Origin: Acidimicrobiales bacterium
Lineage (GTDB): Bacteria; Actinomycetota; Acidimicrobiia; Acidimicrobiales; SZUA-35
NCBI GenBank assembly: GCA_020630195.1
Contig: JAHDBV010000008.1
Location: 877 to 64,876, forward strand
Length of the DNA stretch: 64,000 bases
Reading direction: 5' to 3'
In this document: positions 978 through 49,832 of the stretch, piece by piece
Layout of the letters: the number at the start of each line of letters is the position of its first letter
Position numbering within the stretch: position 1 is the first letter of the stretch
Made by a program: the position numbers and the translations under genes
The notes under the pieces: model-generated
What the model was told of the DNA's origin: nothing
Seen by the model: the letters and a program-made list of their open reading frames with translations, nothing else
Databases searched by the model: none

Positions 978-1017
978 GTGGTCCCCTTGGTTCGCAGCGG
1001 TGAACGTCGTGTCGGGC

Positions 1018-2103: not shown

Positions 2104-2312
2104 GGGCCGAACCTACGAGCGGTGCTCCGTGCCGGGAAGGTCACGGCCCGACGGTGTGTGGTCGAAACCGGACAGGTCGTCGTCGGACGTCCCGGAGGTG
2201 GATTCCGGTCACGCCGGGCGCGCCCGATCGGCGGCGGCGAGACTGCCGAGGGAACGAACCCGGCATGTGGCCGGTTCGTGCCGATGCAGCGTCGAGCCCG
2301 GAGAGATCGCCC

Positions 2313-7426: not shown

Positions 7427-7427
7427 C

Positions 7428-8591
7428 GTGACATCCATGGATCTGGAGGCGCTCGTCGGCGCGGGCTTCGACCTCGACGCGAGCCGATCCCACGCCGCCC
7501 ACGGTCGGTTCTACACCGACCCGGCCGTGCACGAGTTCGAACAGGAGCGGGTCTTCGCCCGGGAGTGGTGCTACGTCGCCCACCGGAGCCAGCTCCCGAA
7601 CCGGGGCGACCATCTGGTGGTCGAACTCGCCGGGCGATCCGTCGTCGTCGTGGCCGACGGTGACGGTCATCGGGCCTTCCACAACGTGTGTCAGCACCGG
7701 GGGCACCAGCTCGTCGCCGAGTCGGGTCACACCCCGAACGTGCTCGTGTGCCCCTACCACGCCTGGAGCTACGCCCTCGACGGCCGTCTGCGCGGCGCGC
7801 CCCACGCCCGTGACGTGCCCGACTTCGATCGGTCGTGTGTCTCATTGACCCCGGTCGGGCTCGACGAGATCGGCGGCTTCCTCTTCGTCAATCTCGACCC
7901 CGATGCCCGTCCGCTGCGAGACGTGGCACCGGGCTTCGAACCCCGCCTGCGCTCGATGGTGGGGGAGAGCGAACACCTCCGCCTCGCGTCGGAGTCCCGC
8001 TTCGGCATCGAGGCCAACTGGAAGGTCGTGACGGAGAACTTCCTCGAGGCGTACCACGTCGAGTTCTCCGGCCCGGCCCACCAGGCACTCGGCAACATCA
8101 TCGACCCGTCGACCTATCGGTTCGAGATCGACGGCCGGGTCATCGAATACACCGCGGGTGGCGGTGCGCCGGAGGTGCTGCCCTACGAGGTGCACGGCAC
8201 CGACGACTTCACGTCGACCGCCGGCGTGCCGTTCCACCAGATCTTCCTCTACCCGAACATGACGTTCTCGGTGTTCCCCGGGACGAACATGGTGTTCGTG
8301 TTCGACATGTCACCGAGCGGCCCCGAGACCACGGCCGAACGCATCCAGTACTTCACCCTCGACGGCCATCTGCAGCGCCCGTCGGACCAGGCCGAGGCCT
8401 TCATCAGCCGGGAGCTCAACCACGAGGACATCGCCCTCGTCGAAGGGGTCCAGCGCGGGCTGCGCTCACCCGGGTATCGGCCGGGCCGGTACATGGTCGA
8501 CGCCGCCGGTGAGGCCGGCTGGGGCGAGCAGTTCGTGCACCACTTCGTGCTCACCCACCTCCGGGCGCTCGGGGTGGTGCCCGAGGCCTGA
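7428..8591 (+). CDS. Rieske non-heme iron oxygenase, alpha (catalytic) subunit
   Basis: Carries CQHRGHQL...CPYHAWSY (Rieske) and ...NFLEAYHVEFSGPAH... (mononuclear iron region). The start is GTG at 7428 or ATG at 7437, one nt after the VOC gene stop. Confidence 0.85.
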   Translation: MTSMDLEALVGAGFDLDASRSHAAHGRFYTDPAVHEFEQERVFAREWCYVAHRSQLPNRGDHLVVELAGRSVVVVADGDGHRAFHNVCQHRGHQLVAESGHTPNVLVCPYHAWSYALDGRLRGAPHARDVPDFDRSCVSLTPVGLDEIGGFLFVNLDPDARPLRDVAPGFEPRLRSMVGESEHLRLASESRFGIEANWKVVTENFLEAYHVEFSGPAHQALGNIIDPSTYRFEIDGRVIEYTAGGGAPEVLPYEVHGTDDFTSTAGVPFHQIFLYPNMTFSVFPGTNMVFVFDMSPSGPETTAERIQYFTLDGHLQRPSDQAEAFISRELNHEDIALVEGVQRGLRSPGYRPGRYMVDAAGEAGWGEQFVHHFVLTHLRALGVVPEA

Positions 8592-36018: not shown

Positions 36019-37227
36019 TCAGTCCGCGAGCGCGACCACGCCGTTCGCGACGAGGGAGTCGATCTCGTCGCCGCCGAACCCCGCATCGGTCAGAATCGCC
36101 CTCGTGTCGGTCCCGACGGAGGGCGCGAGACCATCGGGGCCCGGCATCGTGCCGTTGAGGCGGACGCCGACGCCGGGGAGTCGGCGCGTGCGATCGGGTG
36201 CTTCGGGGCTCGGGTCGGGCACGTGGTGCAGGAGGCCGCGTGCGATCGGGTGCCCCTCGTCGACGACTTCGGTCAACGACCGGACGCGGCCGGACGGGAT
36301 GCCTTCGGCGTTCAGGAGCGTCTCCCACTCCGCGGCGGAGCGGGTGGCGAATCGTTCCGCGATCCGAACGCGCGCCGTCGCGACCTCATCGGGGTCGGCG
36401 CCGGGTAGCCCGATCGTCGGCTCGGCGGCGAGGTCGTGCAGCTCGAGGAGTTCGGCGAGGCGGGCGAAGTGTGTGACCTTGTTGGCGGCGACCATGAGCA
36501 GGCCGTCGGAGGTCTCGAACGAGCCCGACGCAGCGGCGCCACTGAATGCGTTGTTCCCGGTGCGGGGAGGGTTCCCACCACCGTTGGCGGCCCGGACGAG
36601 CCCACTCGCGTTCAGGAAGAGGCCGAGGTCGAGCATGGCGGCGTCGACGTCGACGCCTTCACCCGTCCGGTCCCGTTCGAGGAGTGCGGCGAGGATGCCG
36701 AAGGCGAGGAGCAGCCCCGTGCCGTAGTCGAGGAACGGTGCGCCGACCTTCGTCGGCGGCGACCCCTCGAACCCCGTCGCGGGCATGATGCCGCTCATCG
36801 CCTGGACGACGTGGTCGAACGCCGGGCGTCCGGCGTAGGGGCCCTCCTCGCCATAGGCCGACAACGACGCGTAGACGATCGCCGGGCTCCGGCGACGCAC
36901 GGCCTCGATACCGAGTCCCATCGCCTCGGCCGTGCCCGGAGCGAAGCCCTGCACGAACACGTCCGCGGTCTCGGTGAGCCGGAGCACCACCTCGGCGGCG
37001 CCCGGCGCACGCATGTCGATCGCGAGTGAGCGCTTCCCGGCGTTCTGTGTGGAGAAGCCGACCGGGGTGTTCACCCTCCGGAGCCACTCGCCTCCGATCG
37101 GCTCCACCTTGACGACCTCGGCACCGAGCAGTCCACAGAGGTAGGTGGCCGTCGGTGTGGCGAGCACCTGCCCGAGGTCGATGATGCGCCGTCCGGCGAG
37201 CGGCTGGGCGACCGGGGTGTCCTGCAT
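36019..37227 (-). CDS. family III CoA-transferase (CaiB/BaiF type)
   Basis: ATG at 37227 in ORF 36019..37272. Shows LAGRRIIDLGQVLATPTATYLCGLLGAEVVKVE...NAGKRS..IDM. Confidence 0.85.
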   Translation of the reverse strand: MQDTPVAQPLAGRRIIDLGQVLATPTATYLCGLLGAEVVKVEPIGGEWLRRVNTPVGFSTQNAGKRSLAIDMRAPGAAEVVLRLTETADVFVQGFAPGTAEAMGLGIEAVRRRSPAIVYASLSAYGEEGPYAGRPAFDHVVQAMSGIMPATGFEGSPPTKVGAPFLDYGTGLLLAFGILAALLERDRTGEGVDVDAAMLDLGLFLNASGLVRAANGGGNPPRTGNNAFSGAAASGSFETSDGLLMVAANKVTHFARLAELLELHDLAAEPTIGLPGADPDEVATARVRIAERFATRSAAEWETLLNAEGIPSGRVRSLTEVVDEGHPIARGLLHHVPDPSPEAPDRTRRLPGVGVRLNGTMPGPDGLAPSVGTDTRAILTDAGFGGDEIDSLVANGVVALAD

Positions 37228-37237
37228 GGCGCGGAAC

Positions 37238-38119
37238 CTAGTCGTCGGCGTCGCCGGGAACCCGAACGTCACCGCCCGCCACCGCTCGGAGCAGCTCGAC
37301 GGTGTGGTCGATCGGGGCGGCCGGGTCGGTGGCCCGGGCCACCCAGACCACGGCGACGGGTCGGTCGAGCGGGATGAGTCTGAGGCCGAGGTGGGAGAGA
37401 CCGGTCACGGCCCGTGATGGTTGGATCGAGACCCCGTCGCCGCGGGCGACCAGCTCGGTCAGCGCCGTCAGGGACGCCACCCGGGTGATGAGGTGCGGGC
37501 CTCCGCCCGACGGCAGCAGGAACCCGTCGAGTTCGAAGCCGGGCTGCGGTTCGGTGTCGGACGCGAGGAAGCGGTGCGGCGCGAGATCCTCCGCCGTGAC
37601 GATCGTGCGACCGGCGAGTGGGTGGTGGGCTGCGGCCACGAGCACGAGCTCGTCGTCGGCCAACGGTGTCCCGACCACGTGCGCAGCGCCGACGACGTCC
37701 ACGGTGAGATCGGCGAGGCGTGCATCGGCGGCCTCGGCGGGGCGGAGTGTGGGCAGTCGCACGATCTCGACCGGCAGCTGGTCGGGGGAGGGGAGCATCC
37801 AGGTGATCCGATCGTGGAACCCGACGCCGATGCGGACCGGAGGCTCCTCACCCGTCGCGATCAAGGCCGCGGCCGCTTCGGCATCGGCCAGTTGGCGCAG
37901 GACCGTGTCGGCGGTGGTGGCGAGGAGCTGGCCGGCGTCGGTGAGTCGGAGTGTCCGGCCGTCCGCGACCGCCAGCTCGATGCCGAGGCGTCGTTCGGCC
38001 TCACGGAGCCGACGGCTCGCCGCCGACGGGCTCAGCGAGATCGCGTCCGCGGCCGCCGCCAGGGTCGTGTGGCGGGTGATCGCCCGGAGCAGTTCGAGGT
38101 GGCCACGATCCAACGACAC
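37238..38119 (-). CDS. LysR-family transcriptional regulator
   Basis: GTG at 38119 in ORF 37238..38518. The N-terminal wHTH is LELLRAITRHTTLAAAADAISLSPSAASRRLREAERRLGIELAV, followed by a LysR substrate-binding-like C-terminus. The upstream part of the ORF is Arg/Pro-rich junk. Confidence 0.8.
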   Translation of the reverse strand: MSLDRGHLELLRAITRHTTLAAAADAISLSPSAASRRLREAERRLGIELAVADGRTLRLTDAGQLLATTADTVLRQLADAEAAAALIATGEEPPVRIGVGFHDRITWMLPSPDQLPVEIVRLPTLRPAEAADARLADLTVDVVGAAHVVGTPLADDELVLVAAAHHPLAGRTIVTAEDLAPHRFLASDTEPQPGFELDGFLLPSGGGPHLITRVASLTALTELVARGDGVSIQPSRAVTGLSHLGLRLIPLDRPVAVVWVARATDPAAPIDHTVELLRAVAGGDVRVPGDADD

Positions 38120-38205
38120 CGCTGCGAGGATAGATGCGCGTTGTGCATGAATGCGGTGTGGTAGATGCGCTGGACACATTGGATCACCTCGGGGAGGCTG
38201 AACGC
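38120..38205. promoter_or_regulatory. divergent promoter / candidate LysR operator region
   Basis: This is the least GC-rich stretch of the neighbourhood. It contains ATGC-N7-GCAT (38134-38148, fitting the LTTR T-N11-A pattern), GCATGAATGC (38145-38154), and a 9-nt direct repeat TAGATGCGC at 38131 and 38162 (31 nt apart). Confidence 0.45.
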
Positions 38206-39195
38206 ATGGGCATCGCCGTTCCGTTTCCCGACACCCAACCCGCCGGCTACGAGTGGCTCGACGACGAGCCGCCGTTCGATCCGGCGCGGCACCTGCAGCT
38301 CGAGGCGCCATCGGAGATCGTGATGCTCGCCGATCTCGGCTACGACGACGCCGAGATCGCCACGAAGGCCACCCCGGTCGCCGCGTCGAGCCCGTTCCGG
38401 GTCCTGAGCGATGAGGGGGCCGAGATCCTGCTCGCCACGGCCCGTCAGCTCCGCGGGTTCGTGAGCCCGGCCAACGATCGCATCGAGAACATGCTGCGAG
38501 GCGCCTGCTATCGGTCACGGTGGCTGCGGGATCTCTGCATCAGCCAGGAGGTCAGCGATCACCTGGAGGCCGTCTACGGCATCGAGATCGCTCCGCATCC
38601 GATGCCGTTGCACCTCGGGCACATGAACTTCGAACCGAACCGGATCGACACGGCCATCGACAAGTGGCACCACGACACCCTCCCGCTCGACTTCGTGCTG
38701 ATGGTCACCGACCCGGCCGACGTCGACGGGGGGCGATTCCAGTACTTCACCGGCACCAAGGCCGAAGCGGCCGAGCTCGCCGCCCGGGGCGAGACACCGC
38801 CGGACGACCGCGTGGTGACGCCGGAGTTCCCCGGGCCCGGCTACGCCATCGCCCTGCACGGCGACATGGTGGTGCATCGAGCGGGCCCGCTGGCGACCCT
38901 CGCCGAGCGCATCTCGCTCGTGAACGGCTACGTCGCGCTCGACACGAGCGTCGACGAGCAGAGCCGCTCGGCCGATCTGATCTCGGTCGACGATCCGAAC
39001 GCGCTGTACACCGAGTGGGCGAAGATGGCGGCGTGGCGCTCCGGTGATCGTCTCCGCCGCCTCGTCGACGACCTGCCGTTCACCGACGACAAGGACGTCG
39101 TGATCGACCGGCTGTCGGACGCGATCGCCGAGGCCCAGGCCGCGGTCGAGCAGATGCGGGCCGGTGAGGCTCGCCTCGAGCACTACGGAGGCTGA
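38206..39195 (+). CDS. hypothetical protein with Fe(II)/2-oxoglutarate-oxygenase-like motifs
   Basis: The ATG at 38206 is preceded by GGGAGG. KWHHDTLPLD (HxD) and ...ALHGDMVVHRAG...RISLVNGY (distal His / Arg) suggest a double-stranded beta-helix oxygenase. The family is not firmly recognised. Confidence 0.65.
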   Translation: MGIAVPFPDTQPAGYEWLDDEPPFDPARHLQLEAPSEIVMLADLGYDDAEIATKATPVAASSPFRVLSDEGAEILLATARQLRGFVSPANDRIENMLRGACYRSRWLRDLCISQEVSDHLEAVYGIEIAPHPMPLHLGHMNFEPNRIDTAIDKWHHDTLPLDFVLMVTDPADVDGGRFQYFTGTKAEAAELAARGETPPDDRVVTPEFPGPGYAIALHGDMVVHRAGPLATLAERISLVNGYVALDTSVDEQSRSADLISVDDPNALYTEWAKMAAWRSGDRLRRLVDDLPFTDDKDVVIDRLSDAIAEAQAAVEQMRAGEARLEHYGG

Positions 39196-39198
39196 GGC

Positions 39199-39217
39199 TC
39201 GGCATCGCGGATGCCGA
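39199..39217. terminator. hairpin between convergent genes (8-bp stem, 3-nt loop)
   Basis: TCGGCATC-GCG-GATGCCGA is a perfect inverted repeat, 4 nt after the stop at 39195 and 10 nt before the convergent stop at 39228. There is no U-tract. Confidence 0.4.
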
Positions 39218-39227
39218 ACCGTGTGTC

Positions 39228-41111
39228 TCACTCCGGGACGGTCACCACGTCGTCGTCGGCATCCCGATCCGGGGCGTAGAGGCGGGCGAGTTCGTCGGCC
39301 CGGTGGAGCTGGGCGGCCCGCTGGTTGACATAGCCCTTCTCGGTGATCTCGTTCCGTGTCGGATCGGGTGGCGAGTCGAGCAGCAGGAAGCGACGGATGG
39401 CGGTTGACGAGGCCGGGTTGGCCCGGTTGTGGGCGGCGAGGCCCTCGGCGATGGCGGCCCGCACGGCAGGGGATCGAGCGGGGTCGGCGTCACCGGCCAG
39501 GTCCGCACACGCGGCGGGGTTCGGCCACAGCAGTGCCGTCACCTCGGCCTCGTTCAGGCCGCAGATCACGGCGTCGCGCACGAGCGGTGAGGCGGCGGCG
39601 ACCACCCGGCTGCGGAGTGCGCCCGACTGCACCCAGGTGCCACTGACGAGCTTGAAGTCCTCCGCCACCCGACCGGCGAAGCAGAGGCCCCGCTGTCGGT
39701 CGTCCGGGTCCCGGAACCGGACCGCGTCGCCCATGAGGAAGAAGCCCTCCTCGTCGAACGCCGCCTCGGTGATCGCCGGGTCGCCCAGGTAGCCGGGAGT
39801 GATGCCCGGCCCCCGGGGTCGGAGCTCGTAGCGGCCGTCACCGAGTGGCAAGAGCTTCACCTCCGAGCCCGGACCGGGCAGCCCGAGGACGTCGTGGTCC
39901 TCCGTGGGCCACCAGCGGTTGAGGCCGACGGAGACCTCCGTCGACAGCAGGCTCGTCGTGAGCAGGATCGGGCCGCCGGTGTGGGCCCGGGCCAGGGCCT
40001 GGAGCCGATCGGCGACACTCGTCGGCATGGCCGCGGCGCCGAAGCCGAAGGATCGGCACGACCCGAAGAACGACGCCGCGAGCTCGTCGTCGGCCTCGAG
40101 GGCGTCGACGAGCATGCCCCACCCGATCGGCGAACCGCTCGCCACCGTCGGACGGATGGCGGCCAGGTTCTCGATCGTCGCGTCGTACTGGCCGGGCAGT
40201 GGGCGTCCCCGGTCGAGATGGATCGTGCCGCCGTCGTGGATCAGCATGTTCTGGCGCATCACTCCGGCGGCGACGTGGCTCCAGGGCATCCAGTCGAGCA
40301 CCCGCACGTCGCCGTCGTCACGTTCATCGGCGAGCGCGCACATGGCGCCGAGGAAGCCGCGGTGCATCCGGTGCGTCTGGATGACGCCCTTCGGCACCCC
40401 GGTGGAGCCCGAGGTGAAGATGTACTTCGTCACGGTGTCGGGGGTGATGGCCCCGATCGACGCATCGACATCGTCGGTGGGCTCGGTGGTGAGCAGCTCG
40501 TGGAGGGCGACAGCGCCGTCGTGGCCGCCGGCGTCGGTGATGAGCGTGGCATCGTCGAGGCGCCACGAGACCGCCGAGTCGTTCGCCACCGCCTCGAGCC
40601 CGGCACGGTGGAGCGCCGGGTCGGCCGCGTAGACGAAGGCGGGAGCGACGAGGTCGAGCACGGTCGACAGCTTCCCGAACGCCCCCGGCACCGTGGAGTA
40701 CGGAACGCTCACCGGGCAGACGGGCACCCGTGCCATCTGCGCCCCCCACGAGAGCACGAAATGGTCGAGGGACCGAGCGGACAGCACCGCGAGCGTGCGG
40801 TCGGGTCCGCCATCGTGATCGAGCAGCCACTGCGCCACCCGACGGGCCCGATCGACGGCGTCGCCATAGGTGAGGTCGTGCCACACGCCGGCCTCGTCCT
40901 GCTCGGAGAGCAGCAGTCGGTCGGGATGGCGCGCCGCCCGGTCGACCAGCATGGTCACCATGTCGTCCGGGACGTCGAGTGGCGCGATCGGGCAGGTCAG
41001 CACGAGCGTGCCGTCGTCCCGCTCGACGACGTCGACGACGGGTTCACGAGGAATGGTGCGCAACGGAGGCCTCCGGGTGGGGTGCGCCGACGATCCCACG
41101 CTCTTTGACAT
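39228..41111 (-). CDS. AMP-binding acyl-CoA synthetase (long, feruloyl-CoA-synthase-like subgroup)
   Basis: ATG at 41111 in frame with ORF 39228..42314. Carries the motif YIFTSGSTGVPKGV. The 400 upstream codons are antisense to the P450 gene and compositionally junk. Confidence 0.8.
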   Translation of the reverse strand: MSKSVGSSAHPTRRPPLRTIPREPVVDVVERDDGTLVLTCPIAPLDVPDDMVTMLVDRAARHPDRLLLSEQDEAGVWHDLTYGDAVDRARRVAQWLLDHDGGPDRTLAVLSARSLDHFVLSWGAQMARVPVCPVSVPYSTVPGAFGKLSTVLDLVAPAFVYAADPALHRAGLEAVANDSAVSWRLDDATLITDAGGHDGAVALHELLTTEPTDDVDASIGAITPDTVTKYIFTSGSTGVPKGVIQTHRMHRGFLGAMCALADERDDGDVRVLDWMPWSHVAAGVMRQNMLIHDGGTIHLDRGRPLPGQYDATIENLAAIRPTVASGSPIGWGMLVDALEADDELAASFFGSCRSFGFGAAAMPTSVADRLQALARAHTGGPILLTTSLLSTEVSVGLNRWWPTEDHDVLGLPGPGSEVKLLPLGDGRYELRPRGPGITPGYLGDPAITEAAFDEEGFFLMGDAVRFRDPDDRQRGLCFAGRVAEDFKLVSGTWVQSGALRSRVVAAASPLVRDAVICGLNEAEVTALLWPNPAACADLAGDADPARSPAVRAAIAEGLAAHNRANPASSTAIRRFLLLDSPPDPTRNEITEKGYVNQRAAQLHRADELARLYAPDRDADDDVVTVPE

Positions 41112-41165
41112 GGTTCCAAAAGCGGGGGAGTCTCGGCCCGCAGCCTTCCGCCTTCCGGAGCCGAG

Positions 41166-42377
41166 ATGAGCGACACGACGAGCCCCGTTCCCCGGGTCGA
41201 CGACTGGACGACCGACTGGGACCACCACGATCCGCGCTGGACGAACGACCCGTTCCCCATCTGGGACGAGCTCCGCGCCGGCTGCCCCGCGGCCCACACC
41301 GATCGATACAACGAGGGGGTCTGGCTGCCGACCCGGTTCGCCGACATCACGGCCGTCGCCCACGACACCGACGCGTTCTCGAGCGGGCACAGCGGTGTCA
41401 CCGCCGGCGGGACCGTGCCCCGCGGTGTCTTCCCGCCGATCCATCTGGATCCGCCCGACCATCATCCGATGCGGCGGGCGATGCTGCCGTTCTACAACCC
41501 GAAACGCATCGAGGGCTGGCGCTCGCACGTGCTCGGGATCTGCGACGACCTGATCGACGAGCTGCTCCCGCGGCTCGCCGCCGGCGAGCCCGTCGACGTG
41601 GCGGCGGAGTACGCAGCGCACATCCCCGCCGCCACCATCGCCGCCCTGCTCGGGATCCCGACATCCGACGGCGACCTCTTCCGCCGGTGGATCCACGGCC
41701 TCGAACTCGGCGACAACGACGTCGACGTCCGCAAACAGGCCGTGGCGGAGATGACCGGCTACTTCGCCGGGGTCATCGAGGCCCGCCGTGCCGAACCCGG
41801 CGACGACTTCGTGAGTGTGCTCGTGCAGGCGGAGGTCGACGGCGCGCCGATCGACGACGCCACCTTGCAGCACATCCTCGCCCTCCAGCTCGTGGCCGGC
41901 ATCGACACGACCTGGGGGGTGCTGGGAGCCTCGTTGTGGCACCTCGCCTCCCACGACGACGATCGCCGCACGCTCGTGGCGGACCCGGACAAGATCCCCA
42001 CCGCGATCGAGGAGTTCCTCCGGGCCTACGCCTCGGTGAGTCTGTGGCGCACGGTGGTGGCGCCGGCGACGATCGGCGACGTCGAGGTCTCGGTCGGCGA
42101 CACCGTGATGATGGCCTTCCCCGCGGCGTGTCGGGATCCGGAGGTCTTCGACGACCCGGCCACCGTCGACATCGAGCGCCAGCGCAACCGCCACGTCGCG
42201 TTCGGGTCGGGCATCCACCGATGCCTCGGATCCAACCTCGCCCGCCTCGAGCTGAACGTCGCCGTCGCGCGATGGCTCGAGCGGGTCCCGTCGTTCCGGC
42301 TCGTTCCGGGCCACGACGTCGTCTGGGCCGAGGGTGCGATCCGGGGGCCGCGCTCGGTCATGGTCGAGATCGTCTGA
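41166..42377 (+). CDS. cytochrome P450
   Basis: 403-aa ORF with GGAG upstream. Shows the I-helix AGIDTT, the EEFLR (ExxR) motif and the heme loop FGSGIHRCLG. Confidence 0.9.
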   Translation: MSDTTSPVPRVDDWTTDWDHHDPRWTNDPFPIWDELRAGCPAAHTDRYNEGVWLPTRFADITAVAHDTDAFSSGHSGVTAGGTVPRGVFPPIHLDPPDHHPMRRAMLPFYNPKRIEGWRSHVLGICDDLIDELLPRLAAGEPVDVAAEYAAHIPAATIAALLGIPTSDGDLFRRWIHGLELGDNDVDVRKQAVAEMTGYFAGVIEARRAEPGDDFVSVLVQAEVDGAPIDDATLQHILALQLVAGIDTTWGVLGASLWHLASHDDDRRTLVADPDKIPTAIEEFLRAYASVSLWRTVVAPATIGDVEVSVGDTVMMAFPAACRDPEVFDDPATVDIERQRNRHVAFGSGIHRCLGSNLARLELNVAVARWLERVPSFRLVPGHDVVWAEGAIRGPRSVMVEIV

Positions 42378-42400
42378 TCCGCTCCACCTAGGGTCACCTC

Positions 42401-42781
42401 ATGGCACCAGAACACCCGTCGTTCCCGCTCCAGGCCCATCTCGGCTTCGAGGTCGAAGGCGACGGCGGGCGCGGGTCGGCCCGGCTCGTGCTCGACGAGC
42501 GGCACCACAACCCGAACGGCGTGGCCCATGGCGCCGTGGCGTTCACGATGATGGACACCGCCATGGGCGCAGCCGTGATGTCGCTGCTCGACGACGGCGT
42601 GTTCTGCGCCACGATCGAGATGCAGACGCGCTTCATCCGGGCGGCCTCGGGTGGCGAACTCCGGGCCGAGGCCACGGTCGTGCACCCCGGACGCCGGGTC
42701 ATGCACCTCGAGGCGCGCACGGTCGACGCCGACGGCCGCCTCGTGGCGTCCGCGACGGCGAGCTTCGCCGTGTTGGCCTGA
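42401..42781 (+). CDS. PaaI-family hot-dog thioesterase
   Basis: 126-aa ORF. NPNGVAHGAVAFTMMDTAMG is typical of the PaaI/4HBT class. Confidence 0.8.
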   Translation: MAPEHPSFPLQAHLGFEVEGDGGRGSARLVLDERHHNPNGVAHGAVAFTMMDTAMGAAVMSLLDDGVFCATIEMQTRFIRAASGGELRAEATVVHPGRRVMHLEARTVDADGRLVASATASFAVLA

Positions 42782-42784
42782 GCG

Positions 42785-42823
42785 ATCGGGGGTGCGGGGC
42801 CGGCGAGGGGCCCCGACCGATCA
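42785..42823. terminator. GC-rich stem-loop between convergent genes
   Basis: Inner stem GGGGCC (42797-42802) pairs with GGCCCC (42810-42815). Outer stem GATCGG (42785-42790) pairs with CCGATC (42818-42823). The structure overlaps the stop of the CYP153-like gene. Confidence 0.35.
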
Positions 42824-44167
42824 CTTCTTCCGGGTGACCTTGACGGGCAGCTTCGAGTAGCCGTTCACGAAGGACGAGAACACGTACTCCGGCTCGCCGA
42901 CGACCTCGATCCGCTCGAAGCGCTCGAGGATCTCCTCCCAGACGATCTTCAGCTGGAGCTCGGCCAGGCGCGAGCCCATGCAGAAGTGCACCCCGTACCC
43001 GAAGGACAGGTGCTCCTTTGCGTTCTCCCGCTCGATGTCCAGCTGCTCGGCGTTCGGGAACTTCTCCTCGTCCCGGTTGGCCGACACGTACCACATGAGG
43101 AGCTGATCGTCCTTCTTGATCTGCTTGCCGCCGATCTCGACGTCGCGCGTCGCCGTGCGGCGCATGTACGACAGTGGCGTCTGCCAGCGGATCACCTCGG
43201 GCACGAAGTTCTCGACGAGCTCCGGATTCGCGATCAGCTTGTCGTACTGCTCGGGGTACTTGTTGAGGCCGTAGACACTGCCGGTCATCGTGTTCCGGGT
43301 GGTGTCGTTGCCGCCGACGATGAGCAGCAGCAGGTTGCCGAGATGCTCGATCGGCTGCATGTCCTTGGTCGCCTCACCGTGGGCGAGCATCGAGACGAGA
43401 TCGAAGCCGGGGTTCTCCCGCCGCTCCTTGAAGAGCTGATCGAAGTACCAGACGCACTCGAGCATCTCGTCGCGCTTCTGCTCCTGCGACTCGACCACAC
43501 CACCCGGCTCCGGGATGGCGAACACGATGTCCGACCACCGGGTCAGCTTGCGGCGGTCGTCGAGGGGGAAGTCGAACAGGGTGGCCAGCAGGAGCGTGGT
43601 GAGCTCGATCGAGACGGTGTCGACCCAGTCGAACACCTCGCCCTCGGGCAGGTCCTCGAGCACTTTCACGCTGCGCTCGCGGATCAGGCCCTCGAGTTCA
43701 CGGAGGTTCTTCGGCGCCGAGATGCCGCGCACGGTCTTGCGCTGCGCCGTCTGCTCCGGCGGGTCCATGGCGATGAACGGCGTGATCGGGATCGACGGCT
43801 GGGCCGGCATGTCCGAGGCCTTGAGGCCGAGGGTGATGCCGCTGGCGGAGGAGAAGTCCTGCCAGTTGCCGTCGACGGCGCGCACGTCCTCCCACTTCGT
43901 GATCGACCAGAACCGCCCGGCGGTCTCGATCTCGTTGAAGTGGACCGGGTCCTCGGCCCGCAGACGGGCGAAGTGGTCATGCCAGCGGTGATCCCGGAAG
44001 AGATGGGCGTTCACCGGGTTGATCTCGGAGATCTCGAGGTCGGCGGCGTCACCGACGTCCTCACCGAGCTCGGCCATCTCCATCTCCGGGGTGCGGATGG
44101 TGATCGGCAGGAGTTCGTCGTCGTTCGACGCCTCCGCGGTGGTGCTGTCGGGCATGGTGTCGGTCAT
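42821..44167 (-). CDS. cytochrome P450, CYP153-like (terminal alkane/alkyl hydroxylase type)
   Basis: 448-aa ORF with GGAG RBS. Shows I-helix LLLIVGGNDTTRN, heme loop FGYGVHFCMGSRLAELQLKIVWEEIL and a Lys-rich C-terminus, which closely resembles CYP153 as I recall it. Confidence 0.9.
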   Translation of the reverse strand: MTDTMPDSTTAEASNDDELLPITIRTPEMEMAELGEDVGDAADLEISEINPVNAHLFRDHRWHDHFARLRAEDPVHFNEIETAGRFWSITKWEDVRAVDGNWQDFSSASGITLGLKASDMPAQPSIPITPFIAMDPPEQTAQRKTVRGISAPKNLRELEGLIRERSVKVLEDLPEGEVFDWVDTVSIELTTLLLATLFDFPLDDRRKLTRWSDIVFAIPEPGGVVESQEQKRDEMLECVWYFDQLFKERRENPGFDLVSMLAHGEATKDMQPIEHLGNLLLLIVGGNDTTRNTMTGSVYGLNKYPEQYDKLIANPELVENFVPEVIRWQTPLSYMRRTATRDVEIGGKQIKKDDQLLMWYVSANRDEEKFPNAEQLDIERENAKEHLSFGYGVHFCMGSRLAELQLKIVWEEILERFERIEVVGEPEYVFSSFVNGYSKLPVKVTRKK

Positions 44168-44228
44168 CGAAGGCTCCTGAACGGTCCGGTCCCGGTGACA
44201 GGTTTACACGGTAAGGCTGTCAGATGTC

Positions 44229-44245
44229 TCTTCGGCATCCGAAGA
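44229..44245. other. 7-bp inverted repeat in the CYP153 upstream region (operator or terminator of the upstream thioesterase gene)
   Basis: TCTTCGG-CAT-CCGAAGA lies 62 nt upstream of the P450 start on the minus strand and 35 nt downstream of the thioesterase stop. Confidence 0.3.
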
Positions 44246-44279
44246 TTCCCGATGAGTCGGGGCCGACGGCGGTCGCCGA

Positions 44280-44696
44280 TCAGACCCGATTCGGGACGAG
44301 ACGGATGGTCGAGGTCGCCTTCGCGAGGACGTCGCCGGCCTCGTTCAGGAGGCGTCCTTCGGCGAAGACGGTCTGCTTGCCGGCCTTCTCGATCCACCCC
44401 TCGGCGACCACCGGGCCCGGCGGGGTCGGCTTGAAGAACGTCACCTTGATCTCGAGGGTCGCGATCCAGAACTCGGTGGTGTAGCGCCCGATGCAGGCAT
44501 GGGCCATCGCCGAGTCGATCCACCCCGTGACGAAGCCGCCCTGGGCGACCCCGCCCGAATGGCACATCTCGGGCTTGCAGACGAAGCGGAGCCGGCTCGT
44601 CCCGGCCTCCGGGTCGAGTTCGAGCACCTCACCGTCGCCGAGGGTGGTCAGCAGTTCGTTCTCGGGCGGTTCGATCGTGTCGGTGGGCTCGCTCAT
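44280..44696 (-). CDS. PaaI-family hot-dog thioesterase
   Basis: ATG at 44696 in frame with ORF 44280..45224. Shows HSGGVAQGGFVTGWIDSAMAHA, the PaaI-type pattern. Confidence 0.8.
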   Translation of the reverse strand: MSEPTDTIEPPENELLTTLGDGEVLELDPEAGTSRLRFVCKPEMCHSGGVAQGGFVTGWIDSAMAHACIGRYTTEFWIATLEIKVTFFKPTPPGPVVAEGWIEKAGKQTVFAEGRLLNEAGDVLAKATSTIRLVPNRV

Positions 44697-44740
44697 GGCA
44701 CGCAGTGTGCGCGGCGAGCGGCCGGGTGCGCCAGCGACGC

Positions 44741-45922
44741 TCAGTCGGCGTTGGCGGCGATCCAGTCGCAGAACTGGACGCACCAGCGCTCGTCGCGTCC
44801 GAGCGGGCCGGGGCGGTAGTGGGCGGAGCGGGCGCCCGCCGTCATCGAACGGCACAGCTCGACGTCCTCGGCGTTGGTGACCCGCCAGACCTCGGCGAGG
44901 TGATTGACGTCGTAGTCGACCCCCTCCACGGCGTCGGCGTGCACGAGCCAGGTCGTGGCGAGCAGGCACCGGTCGGTTCCGAGCGGGAGCACCCAGTTCG
45001 TGGCGATGTGGTCGGAGGTGAAGTGGAGCCAGGCGTTGGGGTTGAGCCAGATCGACAGCGTGCTGGCGTCGTGGTGGTGCCACGGTCCGATCGTGCGGCG
45101 GCAGGCGGGGCGACCATCGAAGGTGATCGAGGCGAAGCCCTCGGCCATCGGATACCGGGCGACCCGGACGGCATCGTGGGGGTCGAAGGCCTGCTCCCGC
45201 CATGCCAGCCCGGCGGCCTCCCATCGTGCGGCGGCCTCGGCGAGCCGTTCGGCGTAGGCGGGTGTGGTCGCGCCGTTGAAGCTCGACGGATCGAACACGT
45301 CACACAACCCCGGGTGGTTGGCCCGACAGTGCACACACTCTCGGTTGTTCACCATCACGACGAGCCAGTTCGCGTCCACCACCTCCCGCTCGTGCAGGGC
45401 GACCCGGTAGCCGCCACGGTCGAGATGGAAGGGGTCGGTGTAGGGGGCGAGCACCTGCTGGAGGTCGTCGAGGTCGGCGGTGTCGGCATCCGGATCGAGA
45501 CAGGCGAACACGAGACCGCCTCGTTCGCCGACCGAGATCGCACGCAGCCCCCCGAACCCGTCGGGTGGCCGGTCGACGAAGTCGACGGGCATGCCGGTGG
45601 CGCCCCGGAGCGCGCCGGACGACGGGTCGTAGCTCCACTGGTGGTTGGGGCACACGAGCCGTCGACCGCACGAGCCCGATACGCCGTCGAGCAGGCGGGC
45701 ACTCTGATGCACGCAGCGGTTCTCGAAGCCGCGGATCACCCCGTCGGGACCGTGGACGAGCAGCACGTTCTCGTCGAACAGGTCGAAGGCGAACATGTCG
45801 CCGGGCTCGGGGAGGTCGCCGCGGGTGGCGACGAAGAACCACCGGTTGGTGAGGACCCGACGGCTGTGGCGCTCGTCGCGCAGCATCTCGGCGGGGAGGC
45901 CGAAGCCGCTCGTGTGCTCCAT
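44741..45922 (-). CDS. Rieske non-heme iron oxygenase, alpha (catalytic) subunit
   Basis: 393-aa ORF. CVHQSARL...CPNHQWSY (Rieske), ...NNRECVHCRANHPG... (iron site region). Confidence 0.85.
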   Translation of the reverse strand: MEHTSGFGLPAEMLRDERHSRRVLTNRWFFVATRGDLPEPGDMFAFDLFDENVLLVHGPDGVIRGFENRCVHQSARLLDGVSGSCGRRLVCPNHQWSYDPSSGALRGATGMPVDFVDRPPDGFGGLRAISVGERGGLVFACLDPDADTADLDDLQQVLAPYTDPFHLDRGGYRVALHEREVVDANWLVVMVNNRECVHCRANHPGLCDVFDPSSFNGATTPAYAERLAEAAARWEAAGLAWREQAFDPHDAVRVARYPMAEGFASITFDGRPACRRTIGPWHHHDASTLSIWLNPNAWLHFTSDHIATNWVLPLGTDRCLLATTWLVHADAVEGVDYDVNHLAEVWRVTNAEDVELCRSMTAGARSAHYRPGPLGRDERWCVQFCDWIAANAD

Positions 45923-45976
45923 CGCGGTGACGCTACTGGACGCTCGTCCAGTGGACCGGGGCTTGCCGACACGTGG

Positions 45977-47047
45977 TCAGGGGATGAGCACGAACTTGCC
46001 GACGTGGGCCTTCTCCAGGAACTCCTGCTGCGCCGCGACGATGTCGACGAGCGGGAAGGTCTTGGCCACCACGGGGCGGATCTCGCCCCGCTCGATGTAG
46101 CCCACCAGGTTCGGGAAGACCGGTTCGTCCCATGCCGTCGAGCCGATGAGGCGCAGATCGCGCAGGTACATCGTGCGCATGTCGAGTTCGACGATCGGTC
46201 CACCGATCGCGCCGGACGAGACATAGCGCCCGCCTCGGCGCAGCGAGCCGAGCACGGCCGCGAAGGCGGGCCCGGCCACGTTGTCCACCGCCACGGTGAA
46301 CGTGTCGGTCGGGATCGGCTCGCCACGGGCGATCACGTCGTCGGCGCCGAGCGCCCGCACGGCTGCCGCCTTCGAGGCCGAGGCCACGGCGGTGACCCGG
46401 GCGCCGCGGCGTTTCGCCAACTGCACCGTCGCCGACCCGACACCACCGGATGCTCCCGTCACGAGCACGTGGTCGGCCCCGTCGACCCCGGCCCGGTGGA
46501 GCATGTTCTCCGAGGTCCCGTAGGCGCAGGGGATCGAACCGAGCTCGGCGTCGGTCCAGTCGCAGTCGACCGGGAACACCTCCGAGGCGGCGACCGTGAC
46601 GTACTCGGCGAACGCGCCGTCGAAGTCGGACGCCATCCACACGTGGTCGTAGGTGTCGTAGCCGAGGTGGCGGATGCTGCACCGCACGATCACCCGGCGC
46701 CCGACGATCGACGGGTCGACGTCGGTGGCCACGGCGTCGACGACACCGCAGCAGTCGGTGCCCTGGATCAGCGGCCACGGCGTCGGTGCGCTCCAGCCGC
46801 CGTCCTCACGGTGAACGTCGTCGTCGGCGGCGTCGGCGTCGGAGCTGGTGTCGTCGGTCGAGGCCGTGACGTCGTCGGAGTACCACCCGAGGCGGGTGTT
46901 GATCTCGGTGTTGTTGATGCCGGCCGCGAGCACGCGGATCCGGGCCTCGCCCGGTGCGGGCCGGGGAATCGGCACCTGCTGGATCTCGAGGCGATCGAAG
47001 CCGCCGTTGCCGGTGGTGACGACGGCGGTCATGGTCTCGGCGCTCAT
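45977..47047 (-). CDS. medium-chain (zinc-type) alcohol dehydrogenase / quinone oxidoreductase family
   Basis: ATG at 47047 in ORF 45977..47260. Shows a GroES-like N-terminus and the nucleotide motif VLVTGASGGVGS. Confidence 0.85.
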   Translation of the reverse strand: MSAETMTAVVTTGNGGFDRLEIQQVPIPRPAPGEARIRVLAAGINNTEINTRLGWYSDDVTASTDDTSSDADAADDDVHREDGGWSAPTPWPLIQGTDCCGVVDAVATDVDPSIVGRRVIVRCSIRHLGYDTYDHVWMASDFDGAFAEYVTVAASEVFPVDCDWTDAELGSIPCAYGTSENMLHRAGVDGADHVLVTGASGGVGSATVQLAKRRGARVTAVASASKAAAVRALGADDVIARGEPIPTDTFTVAVDNVAGPAFAAVLGSLRRGGRYVSSGAIGGPIVELDMRTMYLRDLRLIGSTAWDEPVFPNLVGYIERGEIRPVVAKTFPLVDIVAAQQEFLEKAHVGKFVLIP

Positions 47048-47114
47048 GGCGACCACGCTGGCGCTCGCCGACGCCGGACACAACACCTCGGTGTCGCCGG
47101 AGCCCGCCGATTCC

Positions 47115-47132
47115 GGTGACCGGTTGGTCACC
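47115..47132. promoter_or_regulatory. perfect 7-bp inverted repeat upstream of the lar operon
   Basis: GGTGACC-GGTT-GGTCACC lies 38 nt upstream of the larC2 GTG start, inside the 122-nt divergent intergenic region. Confidence 0.3.
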
Positions 47133-47169
47133 ACCCGGCCCGGGCCCGCGGTGAGTACCGTTCGGCGGC

Positions 47170-47613
47170 GTGGCCGTGCACCAGCTCGAGACCAACGTCG
47201 ACGACATGGACCCGCGCCTGTGGCCCGGGGTGCTCGACGCGTTGCTGGCGGCCGGCGCACTCGACGCCTGGCTGGTCCCGATCACGATGAAGAAGGGCCG
47301 TCCGGCCTTCACCCTCTGTGCCCTGGTCGACGACGCCCGACTCGACGCCGTCGCCGAGGCGGTGTTCGCCGAGACGACCACGATCGGTCTGCGGCATCAC
47401 GAGGTGGCCCGGCGGGTGCTTCGGCGCGAACCCGGCGCCGTCACCGTCGGGGGTGAGTCGATCTCGACCAAGACGTCGTCGCTCGACACCGGCCGCTCCC
47501 ACACGAGCGTCGAGTGGGACGACGTCCGGGCCGCCGCCGATCGGCTCGGCCTGTCGGCTCGCGACGTGCTCCGGGCGGCCGAGGCGGCCGCCACCCCGGG
47601 GGCCGGCCGATGA
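47170..47613 (+). CDS. larC2: LarC C-terminal half (LarC2) of the nickel-pincer cofactor nickel insertase
   Basis: 147-aa ORF with a GTG start. It begins VAVHQLETNVDDMDPRLWPGVLDALLAAGALDAW...MKKGRP..., which matches the C-terminal domain of DUF111/LarC. It ends with an ATGA overlap into larE. Confidence 0.8.
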   Translation: MAVHQLETNVDDMDPRLWPGVLDALLAAGALDAWLVPITMKKGRPAFTLCALVDDARLDAVAEAVFAETTTIGLRHHEVARRVLRREPGAVTVGGESISTKTSSLDTGRSHTSVEWDDVRAAADRLGLSARDVLRAAEAAATPGAGR

Positions 47614-48461
47614 GCGCCACCGCCGATCTCACCGCCCTCGAGAGCTGGTTCGCCGCGGCCGGTCCGGTCGCCGTCGCCTGCAGCGGCGGGGTCGACAGCC
47701 TGCTGCTCGCCACCGTCGCCCATCGGGTCGAACCGACCACGCGGATCGTGCACACCGTCACCGCGGCGGTCCCGGCCGACGCCACGGCGAGGGTCCGGGC
47801 TCGAGCCGGCGAGGCCGGCTGGCGTCTCGAACTCGTGCGATCCAGCGAGTTCGACGACGAGCGTTACCTCTCGAATCCGACGGACCGGTGCTACCACTGC
47901 AAGACGCACCTCTACGACGCCATCGACGGACTCGTCGCGGCCGGCGCCGTCCGGGGTGCGACCGTGGTGAGCGGCGCCAACCTCGACGATCTCGGTGAAT
48001 ACCGCCCGGGCCTCGTGGCCGCCGAGGAACACGACGTGCGCCACCCCTACGTCGAGCTGGGCATCACCAAGGCCCGCCTTCGGGCCGTCGCCCGGCTCCT
48101 CGGATCCGATGACGCCGAACTCCCGGCCTCGCCGTGCCTCGCCAGCCGCCTCTACACCGGGACCCGGGTGACCGAGGAGCGCCTCCGTGCCGTCGAGGCC
48201 GGCGAAGCGGTCATCCGGTCCGCCGGCATGCCCGTCGTGCGGTGCCGGATCCGCGGGGACGAAGCACTGGTCGAGGTCCCGAGCGACGATCGGCATCGGA
48301 TCGACGACGAACTCCTCGCCGCCGTCGCCGAGGCCATGCGGGCGGCCGAGCCCACCCTGCGGTCGATCACGCTCGACGACGCGGCCTATCGGCCGGGTCG
48401 GGCGTTCGTCGGTGCGACGACGGCGCCGATCCCCGTCACACTCGGCCGGAGTCGGGGCTGA
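47610..48461 (+). CDS. larE: LarE, ATP-dependent sulfur transferase for the nickel-pincer cofactor (PP-loop ATP pyrophosphatase family)
   Basis: ATG at 47610 in ORF 47514..48461. Shows the PP-loop ACSGGVDS and the Cys motifs RCYHCK and SPCLASR. Confidence 0.9.
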   Translation: MSATADLTALESWFAAAGPVAVACSGGVDSLLLATVAHRVEPTTRIVHTVTAAVPADATARVRARAGEAGWRLELVRSSEFDDERYLSNPTDRCYHCKTHLYDAIDGLVAAGAVRGATVVSGANLDDLGEYRPGLVAAEEHDVRHPYVELGITKARLRAVARLLGSDDAELPASPCLASRLYTGTRVTEERLRAVEAGEAVIRSAGMPVVRCRIRGDEALVEVPSDDRHRIDDELLAAVAEAMRAAEPTLRSITLDDAAYRPGRAFVGATTAPIPVTLGRSRG

Positions 48462-49111
48462 TGCACGTTCCCGACCTCGACCGGGCCGACCGGATCGGCA
48501 TGCCCGAAGCGGTGCTCTGCGAACCGAAGACGGACGAGCAGCTCCGCGTGGTGCTCACCGACCTCGTCGCCGCCGGTCGGCCGACCCTCTGCACCCGTCT
48601 CCCGGCCGAGCGGTTCGCCGGTCTTTCTGCCGATCTCACGGCCGTCATGACCCACGACCCCGCCTCGTCCACGGCCGTGCTCCACGGCGGCCTGCCGGCA
48701 CGGCCGGGGCGCGTCGCCGTCGTCGCCGCGGGCACGTCCGACCACGGCGTGGCCGCCGAAGCCGCCGCGACCCTCCGCTTCTCGGGCGTCGAGGCCGAGC
48801 TCATCGTCGACGTCGGTGTCGCCGCACTGTGGCGCCTCGAGGCCCGCCTCGAGGAGATCCGGGCCGCGGATGTCGTGATCGTGGTGGCCGGGATGGACGC
48901 CGCACTCGTGTCCGTCATGGGTGGTCTCGTCGCCTCACCCGTGATCGCCGTGCCGACCTCGGTCGGCTACGGCGTCGCCACGGACGGCACCTCCGCCCTG
49001 CACAGTTCGCTCGCGAGCTGCGCCCAGGGCGTGGCCGTGATGAACATCGACAACGGCTTCGGCGGTGCGTGCGCGGCCCTGCGCATCCTCGGTCTCGCCC
49101 ATCGTGGCTGA
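48461..49111 (+). CDS. larB: LarB, nicotinic acid adenine dinucleotide carboxylase/hydrolase (AIR-carboxylase-like)
   Basis: ATG at 48461 shares one nt with the larE stop (TGATG). Shows GMPEAVLCEPKT...VAVVAAGTSDHGVAAEAA...VVAGMDAALVSVMGGL...VIAVPTSVGYG. Confidence 0.9.
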   Translation: MHVPDLDRADRIGMPEAVLCEPKTDEQLRVVLTDLVAAGRPTLCTRLPAERFAGLSADLTAVMTHDPASSTAVLHGGLPARPGRVAVVAAGTSDHGVAAEAAATLRFSGVEAELIVDVGVAALWRLEARLEEIRAADVVIVVAGMDAALVSVMGGLVASPVIAVPTSVGYGVATDGTSALHSSLASCAQGVAVMNIDNGFGGACAALRILGLAHRG

Positions 49112-49832
49112 CCCCGACACCCCCACCATCGTCTGGCTCGACGTGTCGACCGGTGTCGCCGGCGACCTCCTGCTCGGGGCCCTCGTCGACGCCGGCGTGC
49201 CGATCGAGGTCCCCGCCGAGGCCGTCGCCCCCCTCGGTCTCGGCATCGGGTTCCGGCGGGAGTCGGTCCAGCGGGCGGGTCTCGCCGCCACCCGTGTGCA
49301 CGTCGACGCGCCCGACAGCCGCACCCACCGGCACCTGCCGGAGATCCGGTCGTTGCTCTCGGACCTCGACGAGGCCGTCGCCGGGGTCGCACTCGACGTG
49401 TTCGAACGACTCGCGGCGGCCGAGGCGTTCGTGCACGGCACCACGATCGACGAGGTCCACTTCCACGAGGTCGGTGCGCTCGACGCCATCGCCGACATCG
49501 TCGGGGCCGTCGCCGCCTGGCGGCACCTCGGTGCCCCCACCGTGGTGGCGAGCCCCATCGGCGTCGGTCGGGGCCGGGCCCGTGCCGCGCACGGCTCGCT
49601 CCCGGTTCCGGTGCCGGCCGTGCTGGCACTCACCCGCGACGTCGCGCCCATCGAGGCGGGCCCCCTGCCGTTCGAGGCGGCGACGCCGACAGGTGTGGCC
49701 CTCGTGTGCACACTCGCCGAACGGTTCGAGCCCATCCCGGCGATGACCCCGATCTCGGTGGGGGTCGGCGCCGGCCAGCGTGATCCCGACGGAGTGCCGA
49801 ACGTGGTGCGGGCGGTGCTGGGGCGGGCCTGA
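49104..49832 (+). CDS. larC1: LarC N-terminal half (LarC1) of the nickel-pincer cofactor nickel insertase
   Basis: GTG at 49104 (8-nt overlap with larB) in ORF 49065..49832. Shows IVWLDVSTGVAGDLLLGALVDAGVP...FHEVGALDAIADIVG...GAGQRDPDGVPNVVRAVLG, the N-terminal DUF111 domain. It stops exactly at the LarC1/LarC2 boundary. Confidence 0.85.
   Translation: MADPDTPTIVWLDVSTGVAGDLLLGALVDAGVPIEVPAEAVAPLGLGIGFRRESVQRAGLAATRVHVDAPDSRTHRHLPEIRSLLSDLDEAVAGVALDVFERLAAAEAFVHGTTIDEVHFHEVGALDAIADIVGAVAAWRHLGAPTVVASPIGVGRGRARAAHGSLPVPVPAVLALTRDVAPIEAGPLPFEAATPTGVALVCTLAERFEPIPAMTPISVGVGAGQRDPDGVPNVVRAVLGRA

Follow-up and report, generated by a model that had tools for sequence, protein, structure and literature searches.

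Does a dense row of oxygenase, hotdog thioesterase, and coenzyme A (CoA) ligase genes in an Acidimicrobiales genome form one functional unit, or does it bring together genes with separate histories? The row in question occupies positions 37238 to 47047 of a 64,000-nucleotide stretch of DNA (hereafter, the window), i.e., C169:877-64876 (GenBank contig JAHDBV010000008.1, 94 kb) of a metagenome-assembled genome (MAG; 4.9 Mb, 200 contigs, 82% complete). An earlier reading of the sequence (the first-pass annotation) had seen here a single island headed by a LysR regulator, in which two cytochromes P450 (P450_1 and P450_2) were each paired with their own PaaI-type thioesterase (PaaI_1 and PaaI_2) in the company of a CoA ligase. 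We conclude that the row is probably a mosaic, put together from three or more pieces with separate inheritance, within a long oxygenase- and CoA-rich catabolic region of this marine genome, and not one island, because gene neighborhoods are not conserved among relatives, synteny breaks at position 42820, and the hallmarks of an island are lacking.

The GC content of the window is ~70%, and spurious open reading frames (ORFs) are plentiful at such values. Genes were chosen first by GC content at codon positions and then confirmed using Pfam and NCBIfam; PDB sequence searches and, for one protein resembling 2-oxoglutarate (2OG) oxygenases, AlphaFold and Foldseek supplied further identifications. 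All of the genes singled out at first pass were found where they had been placed, with small corrections. The two pieces that meet in the middle of the row comprise the following features.

39228 to 41111, minus strand: acyl-CoA synthetase (AMP-binding), ~627 aa; Pfam AMP-binding and AMP-binding_C_3; ATG start at 41111.
41166 to 42377, plus strand: cytochrome P450_1; Pfam p450; closest PDB match P450cin (208 bits).
42401 to 42781, plus strand: PaaI_1, putative PaaI/TIGR00369-type hotdog thioesterase; Pfam 4HBT, 62.7 bits; TIGR00369, 78.7 bits.
42821 to 44167, minus strand: P450_2, CYP153-family cytochrome P450; 464 bits to CYP153A7.
44280 to 44696, minus strand: PaaI_2, putative PaaI/TIGR00369-type hotdog thioesterase, 138 aa; TIGR00369, 46.9 bits; PF03061 match; ATG start at 44696.
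44741 to 45922, minus strand: Rieske nonheme iron oxygenase alpha subunit, Stc2/GbcA type; Pfam Rieske, 53 bits, and Ring_hydroxyl_A, 96 bits.
45977 to 47047, minus strand: medium-chain dehydrogenase/reductase (MDR) of the quinone-oxidoreductase/enoyl-reductase type; Pfam ADH_N and ADH_zinc_N; start uncertain, 46933 to 47047.

One piece would be the acyl-CoA synthetase gene, divergent from a two-gene P450_1-hotdog operon, and another the codirectional run of MDR, Rieske oxygenase, hotdog, and CYP153 genes. P450_2 faces PaaI_1 across a convergent gap of 40 bp that contains a G+C-rich hairpin, and PaaI_2 lies 112 bp upstream of P450_2. A third piece, at the left end, would consist of the LysR gene (probably with a CoA-transferase gene) and a divergent gene for a BesD-like Fe/2OG hydroxylase, and is described further below.

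The boundary between the pieces was located by comparison with a genome of the same genus (G001), whose contig aligns to window positions 42820 to 47998 at 78% DNA identity, with nothing contiguous leftward. Synteny ends exactly at 42820, within the 40-bp gap. Gene order on the G001 contig runs from the lar genes through MDR, Rieske oxygenase, and PaaI_2 to CYP153, beyond which come a different CoA-transferase gene, PhyH genes, and further genes. The acyl-CoA synthetase, PaaI_1 (searched for directly), and a close copy of P450_1 have no match in G001, and its copy of the 2OG oxygenase gene lies on a separate contig without a LysR gene. Only the minus-strand run of the supposed LysR-headed island is thus kept in this relative.

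Such a break might mean that the left segment, from LysR to PaaI_1 (37238 to 42800), is a recent insertion or rearrangement, perhaps of horizontal origin, into an older MDR-Rieske-hotdog-CYP153/lar neighborhood. We consider this unlikely, and it would in any case be compatible with a mosaic. It would fit the exact end of synteny in a hairpin-bearing convergent gap, the lack of close matches in G001 for the ligase, P450_1, and PaaI_1, and the distance to the nearest relatives of P450_1 and the ligase, which are only 61 to 67% identical. However, the segment has the same base composition and third-position GC content as its flanks (GC, flat at 0.68 to 0.72 throughout; third-position GC, 0.83 to 0.95), and its borders carry no integrase, tRNA gene, or direct repeat. 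Furthermore, gene order in G001 is shuffled along the whole contig, so that the break at 42820 is one of many rearrangements and no clean insertion can be delineated. The region as a whole contains no tRNA gene and no meaningful flanking or border repeats, and Pfam scans of the window genes revealed no family of integrases, transposases, or phages. With no deviant composition and none of these border features, a horizontally acquired genomic island was rejected.

Conservation of the P450-thioesterase pairs was evaluated at related loci, nearly all of them from MAGs of marine or sponge Acidimicrobiales. We compared 80 loci with CYP153-like genes (63 to 85% identity to P450_2; flanks of up to 8 kb per side), 74 PaaI_2 loci, 9 P450_1 loci, 19 PaaI_1 loci, and 72 ligase loci; the G001 contig appears as L002 in the first set and as L081 in the second. 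The MDR-Rieske-hotdog-CYP153 run was kept at 1 of the 80 CYP153-like loci, namely on the G001 contig, and an equally close CYP153 copy (L001; 85% identical) has neither the run nor a hotdog gene. A P450 gene was present at 2 of the 74 PaaI_2 loci (L081 and L096). None of the five full-length P450_1 orthologs (64 to 67% identical) is accompanied by a hotdog or ligase homolog, their neighbors being genes for TetR, an aminotransferase, an AMP-ligase, a DUF5655 protein, and a hydrolase; the remaining four of the nine loci likewise showed neither. No P450 gene lies within 1.5 kb of the PaaI_1 homologs (0/19), and no hotdog gene was found at the ligase loci (0/72), six of which have distant P450 genes. 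The Rieske gene has only one other ortholog (57%) among 60 relatives, where it stands alone. The first-pass annotation had staked its proposal on co-conservation of the thioesterases with the P450s, yet almost every related locus lacks such a pair.

The arrangement that had been proposed (i.e., each P450 with its own PaaI and a CoA ligase) would let a substrate be activated and oxidized as its CoA ester, with the hotdog enzyme releasing the product or proofreading, as in the PaaK/PaaABCE/PaaI system. A published precedent comes from the phenylacetate pathway (PMC9493321), where an oxygenase uses a CoA ester as its substrate and PaaI serves alongside it as a relief valve. The window resembles that system in having ligase, oxygenase, and PaaI-type hotdog genes side by side. 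It differs in that the oxygenases are P450s, not the di-iron PaaABCE, that both hotdog proteins fall below the PaaI cutoff, and that the adjacency is not conserved. Families of the PaaABCDE, PaaG, PaaZ, and PaaK types were not found among the window genes scanned.

Several observations nevertheless favor such pairing and weigh against a mere mosaic. The window has two P450-hotdog adjacencies within 4 kb, with a ligase gene adjoining, and P450_1 and PaaI_1, only 23 bp apart, are probably cotranscribed. Using complete lists of PF00067 and PF03061 matches for the source genome and seven other genomes of the family (129 P450 genes and 69 hotdog matches in the eight genomes), we counted immediate adjacencies. 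Two of the 19 P450 genes of the source genome adjoin 2 of its 12 4HBT genes (0.10 expected; P ~0.004), and the eight genomes together have four adjacent pairs versus 0.48 expected under random gene order (P ~0.013 when counted as three independent cases). These four are the two window pairs, the G001 ortholog of the second pair, and a pair at G022:C1, the location also designated L096. Two further candidates, at G022:C3 and G009:C5, were rejected as neighbors, with one and four intervening ORFs, respectively. The L096 locus is an independent cluster in which genes for an AMP-ligase, an amidohydrolase, a PaaI_2-like hotdog, a P450_1-like P450, and an acyl-CoA dehydrogenase follow one another on one strand. 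P450s and hotdogs may therefore form a loose functional guild. Additionally, the inventory of redox partner genes given below is a lower bound, the genome being 82% complete.

Even so, we judge dedicated P450-thioesterase-ligase units to be quite unlikely. Besides the scarcity of the pairs at related loci (1/80, 2/74, 0/9, 0/19, and 0/72 in the five sets) and the hotdog-free L001 locus, relatives of PaaI_2 occur in unrelated contexts in marine Pseudomonadales. Characterized CYP153 enzymes are known to use free alkanes, alcohols, or fatty acids. In the literature searched, no described P450-PaaI system was found, and nothing on these Acidimicrobiales P450s. The adjacency excess is not taken as fixed pairing, because a null model of random gene order is too generous for catabolic clusters; it is only a sign that P450s and hotdogs both dwell in acyl-CoA catabolic neighborhoods. 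What stands of the proposed pairing is a loose association with a weak statistical excess, and what falls is its conservation. A bolder version, which we regard as very unlikely, is that some marine Acidimicrobiales P450s (P450cin-like and CYP153-like, here and at L096) oxidize acyl-CoA thioesters, with the adjoining hotdog as a dedicated release or relief valve, and thereby form a P450 version of PaaK/PaaABCE/PaaI assembled repeatedly from nonorthologous parts. A small secondary-metabolite cluster, in which the ligase activates a starter acid, the oxygenases tailor it, and the hotdogs release it, is scarcely credible and was rejected: in NCBIfam, P450_2 is matched best by the model for SolI, the solanimycin P450, and P450_1 matches the models for pentalenolactone synthase and cyclodipeptide-associated P450s, but these matches fall far below the cutoffs (435 versus 850 and 153 versus 700), P450_2 is a plain CYP153, the 64 kb contain no polyketide synthase, nonribosomal peptide synthetase, carrier protein, terpene synthase, or cyclodipeptide synthase, and the neighbors are catabolic.

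Under the mosaic reading, each P450 would hydroxylate a free hydrophobic substrate (e.g., an alkyl or terpenoid-like chain), with electrons supplied by shared ferredoxins whose genes lie elsewhere and by a single ferredoxin reductase encoded on contig C5. The oxidized products would become acids, which one of the many CoA ligases would then activate for breakdown as CoA esters. The PaaI-type hotdogs may serve as general relief valves that hydrolyze stalled acyl-CoAs and free CoA, rather than as dedicated partners of the P450s, and the two P450-hotdog adjacencies would reflect local crowding of acyl-CoA catabolic genes together with lineage-specific shuffling. The window is indeed crowded in this respect, with three PhyH genes, two luciferase-like monooxygenases, a second Rieske alpha subunit, three AMP-ligases, and two CoA-transferases, and the setting is rich in CoA metabolism. 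The genes of the row add members to enzyme families that are already known, and their surroundings are a catabolic region that has been shuffled. A striking row of oxygenase, hotdog, and CoA-ligase genes in a MAG can arise when genes are reshuffled within a genome rich in catabolic functions.

The supply of electrons was a second puzzle raised by the locus. Neither ferredoxin nor ferredoxin reductase genes were detected at 36 to 47 kb using Pfam and NCBIfam, and nothing similar appeared in scans of the window genes. The absence reported at first pass extends to the whole 94-kb contig: tblastn searches with the genome's own five ferredoxins and its ferredoxin reductase gave no match there, and none of the genome's Fer4_15, Fer2, and Reductase_C matches is located on it. 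Genome-wide, we found 19 P450 genes, 5 small ferredoxins (Fer4_15), 9 Fer2 matches, and 1 Reductase_C-type reductase; the partner genes are located on contigs C5, C14, C104, C142, and C150, and two of the five Fer4_15 ferredoxins lie beside other P450s. The reductase gene (C5:58876-60153), the sole one of the putidaredoxin-reductase type found in the genome, is overlapped at its start by a gene for a 3Fe/4Fe-type ferredoxin, and no P450 gene is nearby. This pair (C5:58876-60305) is the obvious candidate for a shared redox pair serving the 19 P450s and a candidate pair for reconstituting those of the window. The suggestion that electrons come from elsewhere is supported, with four more small ferredoxins available besides the C5 pair, and the situation is an ordinary one. 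In actinobacteria, it is a familiar pattern that many P450s are served by a few shared ferredoxins and reductases. The window matches such "orphan" class I P450s without essential difference, its genome having 19 P450s, 5 ferredoxins, and 1 reductase that are mostly unlinked.

The same holds across the CYP153-like loci. No reductase gene was found near any of the 80 within the flanks of up to 8 kb, and a ferredoxin gene was found near only two, ~4 kb away. Missing partner genes are the rule for this CYP153 clade and normal for these marine actinobacteria. At one locus in a relative from the same family (L271, in G009:C5), an ORF of 87 aa (7276 to 7539) immediately precedes a gene similar to P450_1 (43% identical). 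Its product may be a ferredoxin, in which case relatives of P450_1 would sometimes carry a partner gene. As electron donors, the first-pass annotation had nominated two Rieske-fusion flavoenzymes at 1 to 4.3 kb, which nothing ties to P450 reduction and which are not reductases. Both are unusual fusions. One (2154 to 4262, plus strand) has an N-terminal Rieske [2Fe-2S] domain fused to a complete thiamine-diphosphate enzyme (TPP_N/M/C); in the other (3 to 1052, minus strand), which runs off the window, a Rieske domain is fused to a glutamate-synthase FMN-type domain.

The P450 that had been called CYP153-like is a true CYP153, as judged from its sequence. It is 55.2% identical to CYP153A7 (PDB 3RWL) over 402 aligned residues, above the 40% expected of a family member, and 12 more CYP153-type PDB chains match it at 341 to 457 bits. 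The CYP153 signature motifs are present (GGNDTTRN in the I helix, at residue 285, and FGYGVHFCMG in the heme-thiolate loop, at 389). P450_2 thus shares identity, I-helix signature, and heme-thiolate loop with the CYP153 alkane/fatty-acid omega-hydroxylases, of which CYP153A7 is an example. It departs from known CYP153 operons in its setting: its neighbors are CoA-metabolism genes, not the AraC-ferredoxin-P450-ferredoxin reductase order, and neither P450 of the window is adjoined by the ferredoxin or reductase gene of a three-component class I P450 operon. The corresponding motifs of P450_1 are AGIDTT (I helix) and FGSGIHRCLG (heme loop). The clade represented by loci L001 to L080 spans Acidimicrobiales, Pseudomonadales (Azotimanducaceae), and Myxococcota, often with several copies per genome, and its commonest neighbors look like enoyl-CoA hydratase, short-chain dehydrogenase/reductase, and acyl-CoA dehydrogenase genes (representatives read directly, with no family search). 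These neighborhoods suggest a role other than that of the classical alkane operon. Large as it is, this marine clade moves in the company of beta-oxidation genes and without redox partners of its own, and metagenomic surveys that count CYP153 as a marker of alkane degradation should weigh it.

Both hotdog proteins exceed the TIGR00369 domain cutoff (36.6 bits), and their MDTA (PaaI_1, in an HG...MDTA motif) and IDSA (PaaI_2) motifs align, with a conserved Asp at the helix N terminus. Neither approaches the PaaI equivalog TIGR02286 (25.9 and 31.4 bits, respectively; cutoff, 118.9). The reading frame of PaaI_2 is open up to 45224, which is why the gene was hidden in ORF lists. An ORF at 44164 to 44565 (minus strand) was rejected as the second thioesterase, having no Pfam match and being in the wrong frame; codon-position GC content and sequence both point to 44280 to 44696. 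In marine Pseudomonadales (L088 to L104 and L139), relatives of PaaI_2 that are 65 to 76% identical form part of a conserved block, in which the gene follows a crotonase-like gene among luciferase-like oxidoreductases, an APH-like kinase, and HtpX (all named by reading of the sequence). Identity this high across phyla, in a protein of 138 aa, hints that the gene has been transferred.

The ligase reaches 623 bits against NCBIfam PRK12582 (cutoff, 777). In the MDR, which had been annotated as a zinc alcohol dehydrogenase, the nucleotide-binding motif ASGGVGS and the best NCBIfam matches (PIG3-type quinone reductase, acryloyl-CoA reductase, and crotonyl-CoA reductase, all below cutoff) point instead to a quinone-oxidoreductase/enoyl-reductase type. 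The Rieske protein has both the Rieske cluster (CVH...CPNH) and the Ring_hydroxyl_A domain, and its PDB matches are 3N0Q (219 bits) and Stc2 (204 bits). Domain order and best sequence matches place it in the Stc2/GbcA/CntA class, named for stachydrine demethylase, glycine-betaine monooxygenase, and carnitine monooxygenase, respectively. It differs from the known members in scoring below the equivalog cutoff of the GbcA model (269 bits versus 670), in lacking a GbcB- or CntB-type reductase gene nearby, and in having orthologs in only 2 of 60 relatives; its substrate is predicted to differ from that of GbcA. Enzymes of this class function without a beta subunit, so that the missing beta subunit is expected here. 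The enzyme would be a monooxygenase that needs no beta subunit, belongs with the quaternary-amine demethylases, possibly acts on a quaternary amine, and uses a reductase supplied from elsewhere.

The left-hand piece of the mosaic comprises four features, the first lying just outside the 10-kb row.

36019 to 37227, minus strand: family III CoA-transferase; Pfam CoA_transf_3, 316 bits.
37238 to 38119, minus strand: LysR-type transcriptional regulator, ~293 aa; Pfam HTH_1 and LysR_substrate; GTG start at 38119.
38120 to 38205, no strand assigned: divergent control region of 86 bp between the starts of the LysR and 2OG oxygenase genes.
38206 to 39195, plus strand: Fe(II)/2OG oxygenase of the BesD/HalD fold, 329 aa; AlphaFold, Foldseek, and conserved residues.

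The CoA-transferase gene begins 10 bp past the LysR stop codon on the same strand, and with this spacing the two are probably cotranscribed. The regulator has an N-terminal HTH_1 domain, a C-terminal LysR_substrate domain, and a divergent neighbor gene, and it reaches no NCBIfam equivalog. Promoter and terminator scans gave nothing that exceeded the shuffled background. Most likely, LysR would regulate the divergent BesD-like hydroxylase gene and probably also the CoA-transferase gene downstream of its own. Its standing as head of the row is limited to divergence from that one gene, and the pairing is not kept elsewhere: no LysR gene was found beside the homologs of the 2OG oxygenase gene at the loci scanned, whose neighbors are variable, and the CoA-transferase ortholog in G001 (67%) lies elsewhere on the G001 contig without a LysR gene.

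The start of the 2OG oxygenase gene was fixed at the ATG at 38206, preceded by GGGGAGG, because homologs in the databases are called at 329 aa. The protein had been described as a 2OG-oxygenase-like hypothetical protein, and it is truly of this superfamily. A PDB sequence search gave no match, and the Pfam HalD score of the protein itself is 21.4 bits (gathering score, 26); 39 of 53 homologs match HalD at an E value of ≤0.01 (best, 1.7e-11). The AlphaFold model, built with a deep alignment of homologs, has a pLDDT of 94.8 and the double-stranded beta-helix fold of the BesD/HalD family, and its top Foldseek matches are BesD, HalB, HalD, and HalA (probability, 1.0; target-normalized TM score, ~0.6), the first eight being BesD, HalB, and a hydroxylase homolog. 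Among the homologs, H155 and H224 do not vary, and conservation of D157 and R235 is ≥90%. Since an Asp is retained at the second ligand position (D157), the product is predicted from the model and the conserved iron-site residues to be an Fe/2OG hydroxylase (HxD...H), not a halogenase. The first-pass annotation had counted four oxygenase types; the four oxygenase genes are real, but with this assignment they belong to only three superfamilies (Fe/2OG, P450 [two genes], and Rieske).

The protein resembles BesD and HalA to HalD, a family of halogenases and hydroxylases of free amino acids, in its best fold match, in the weak HalD match, and in having the HxD...H triad and the Arg (R235) expected to bind 2OG. 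It differs in being ~80 residues longer, with a C-terminal extension of ~70 aa that forms a helical bundle, in being only 14 to 20% identical, and in belonging to a family of its own, highly conserved among Acidimicrobiales from the sea and from sponges, "Candidatus Poriferisodalis" among them. Among the candidates scored, 971 homologs were found at an E value of 1e-5, the best 120 of which are 68 to 80% identical. A widespread "hypothetical" family of these bacteria thus gains a confident model-based fold assignment as predicted BesD-like Fe/2OG hydroxylases.

Two minor features lie outside the row. ARAGORN reported a tRNA-Leu(taa) at 5379 to 5463, inside the luciferase-like monooxygenase gene at 5038 to 6066 (minus strand), which is probably a false positive. 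Beyond the MDR gene, the nickel-insertion protein LarC is split between two genes (47170 to 47613 and 49065 to 49832) in permuted order, the gene for the C-terminal part preceding that for the N-terminal part, and the same order is found in G001.

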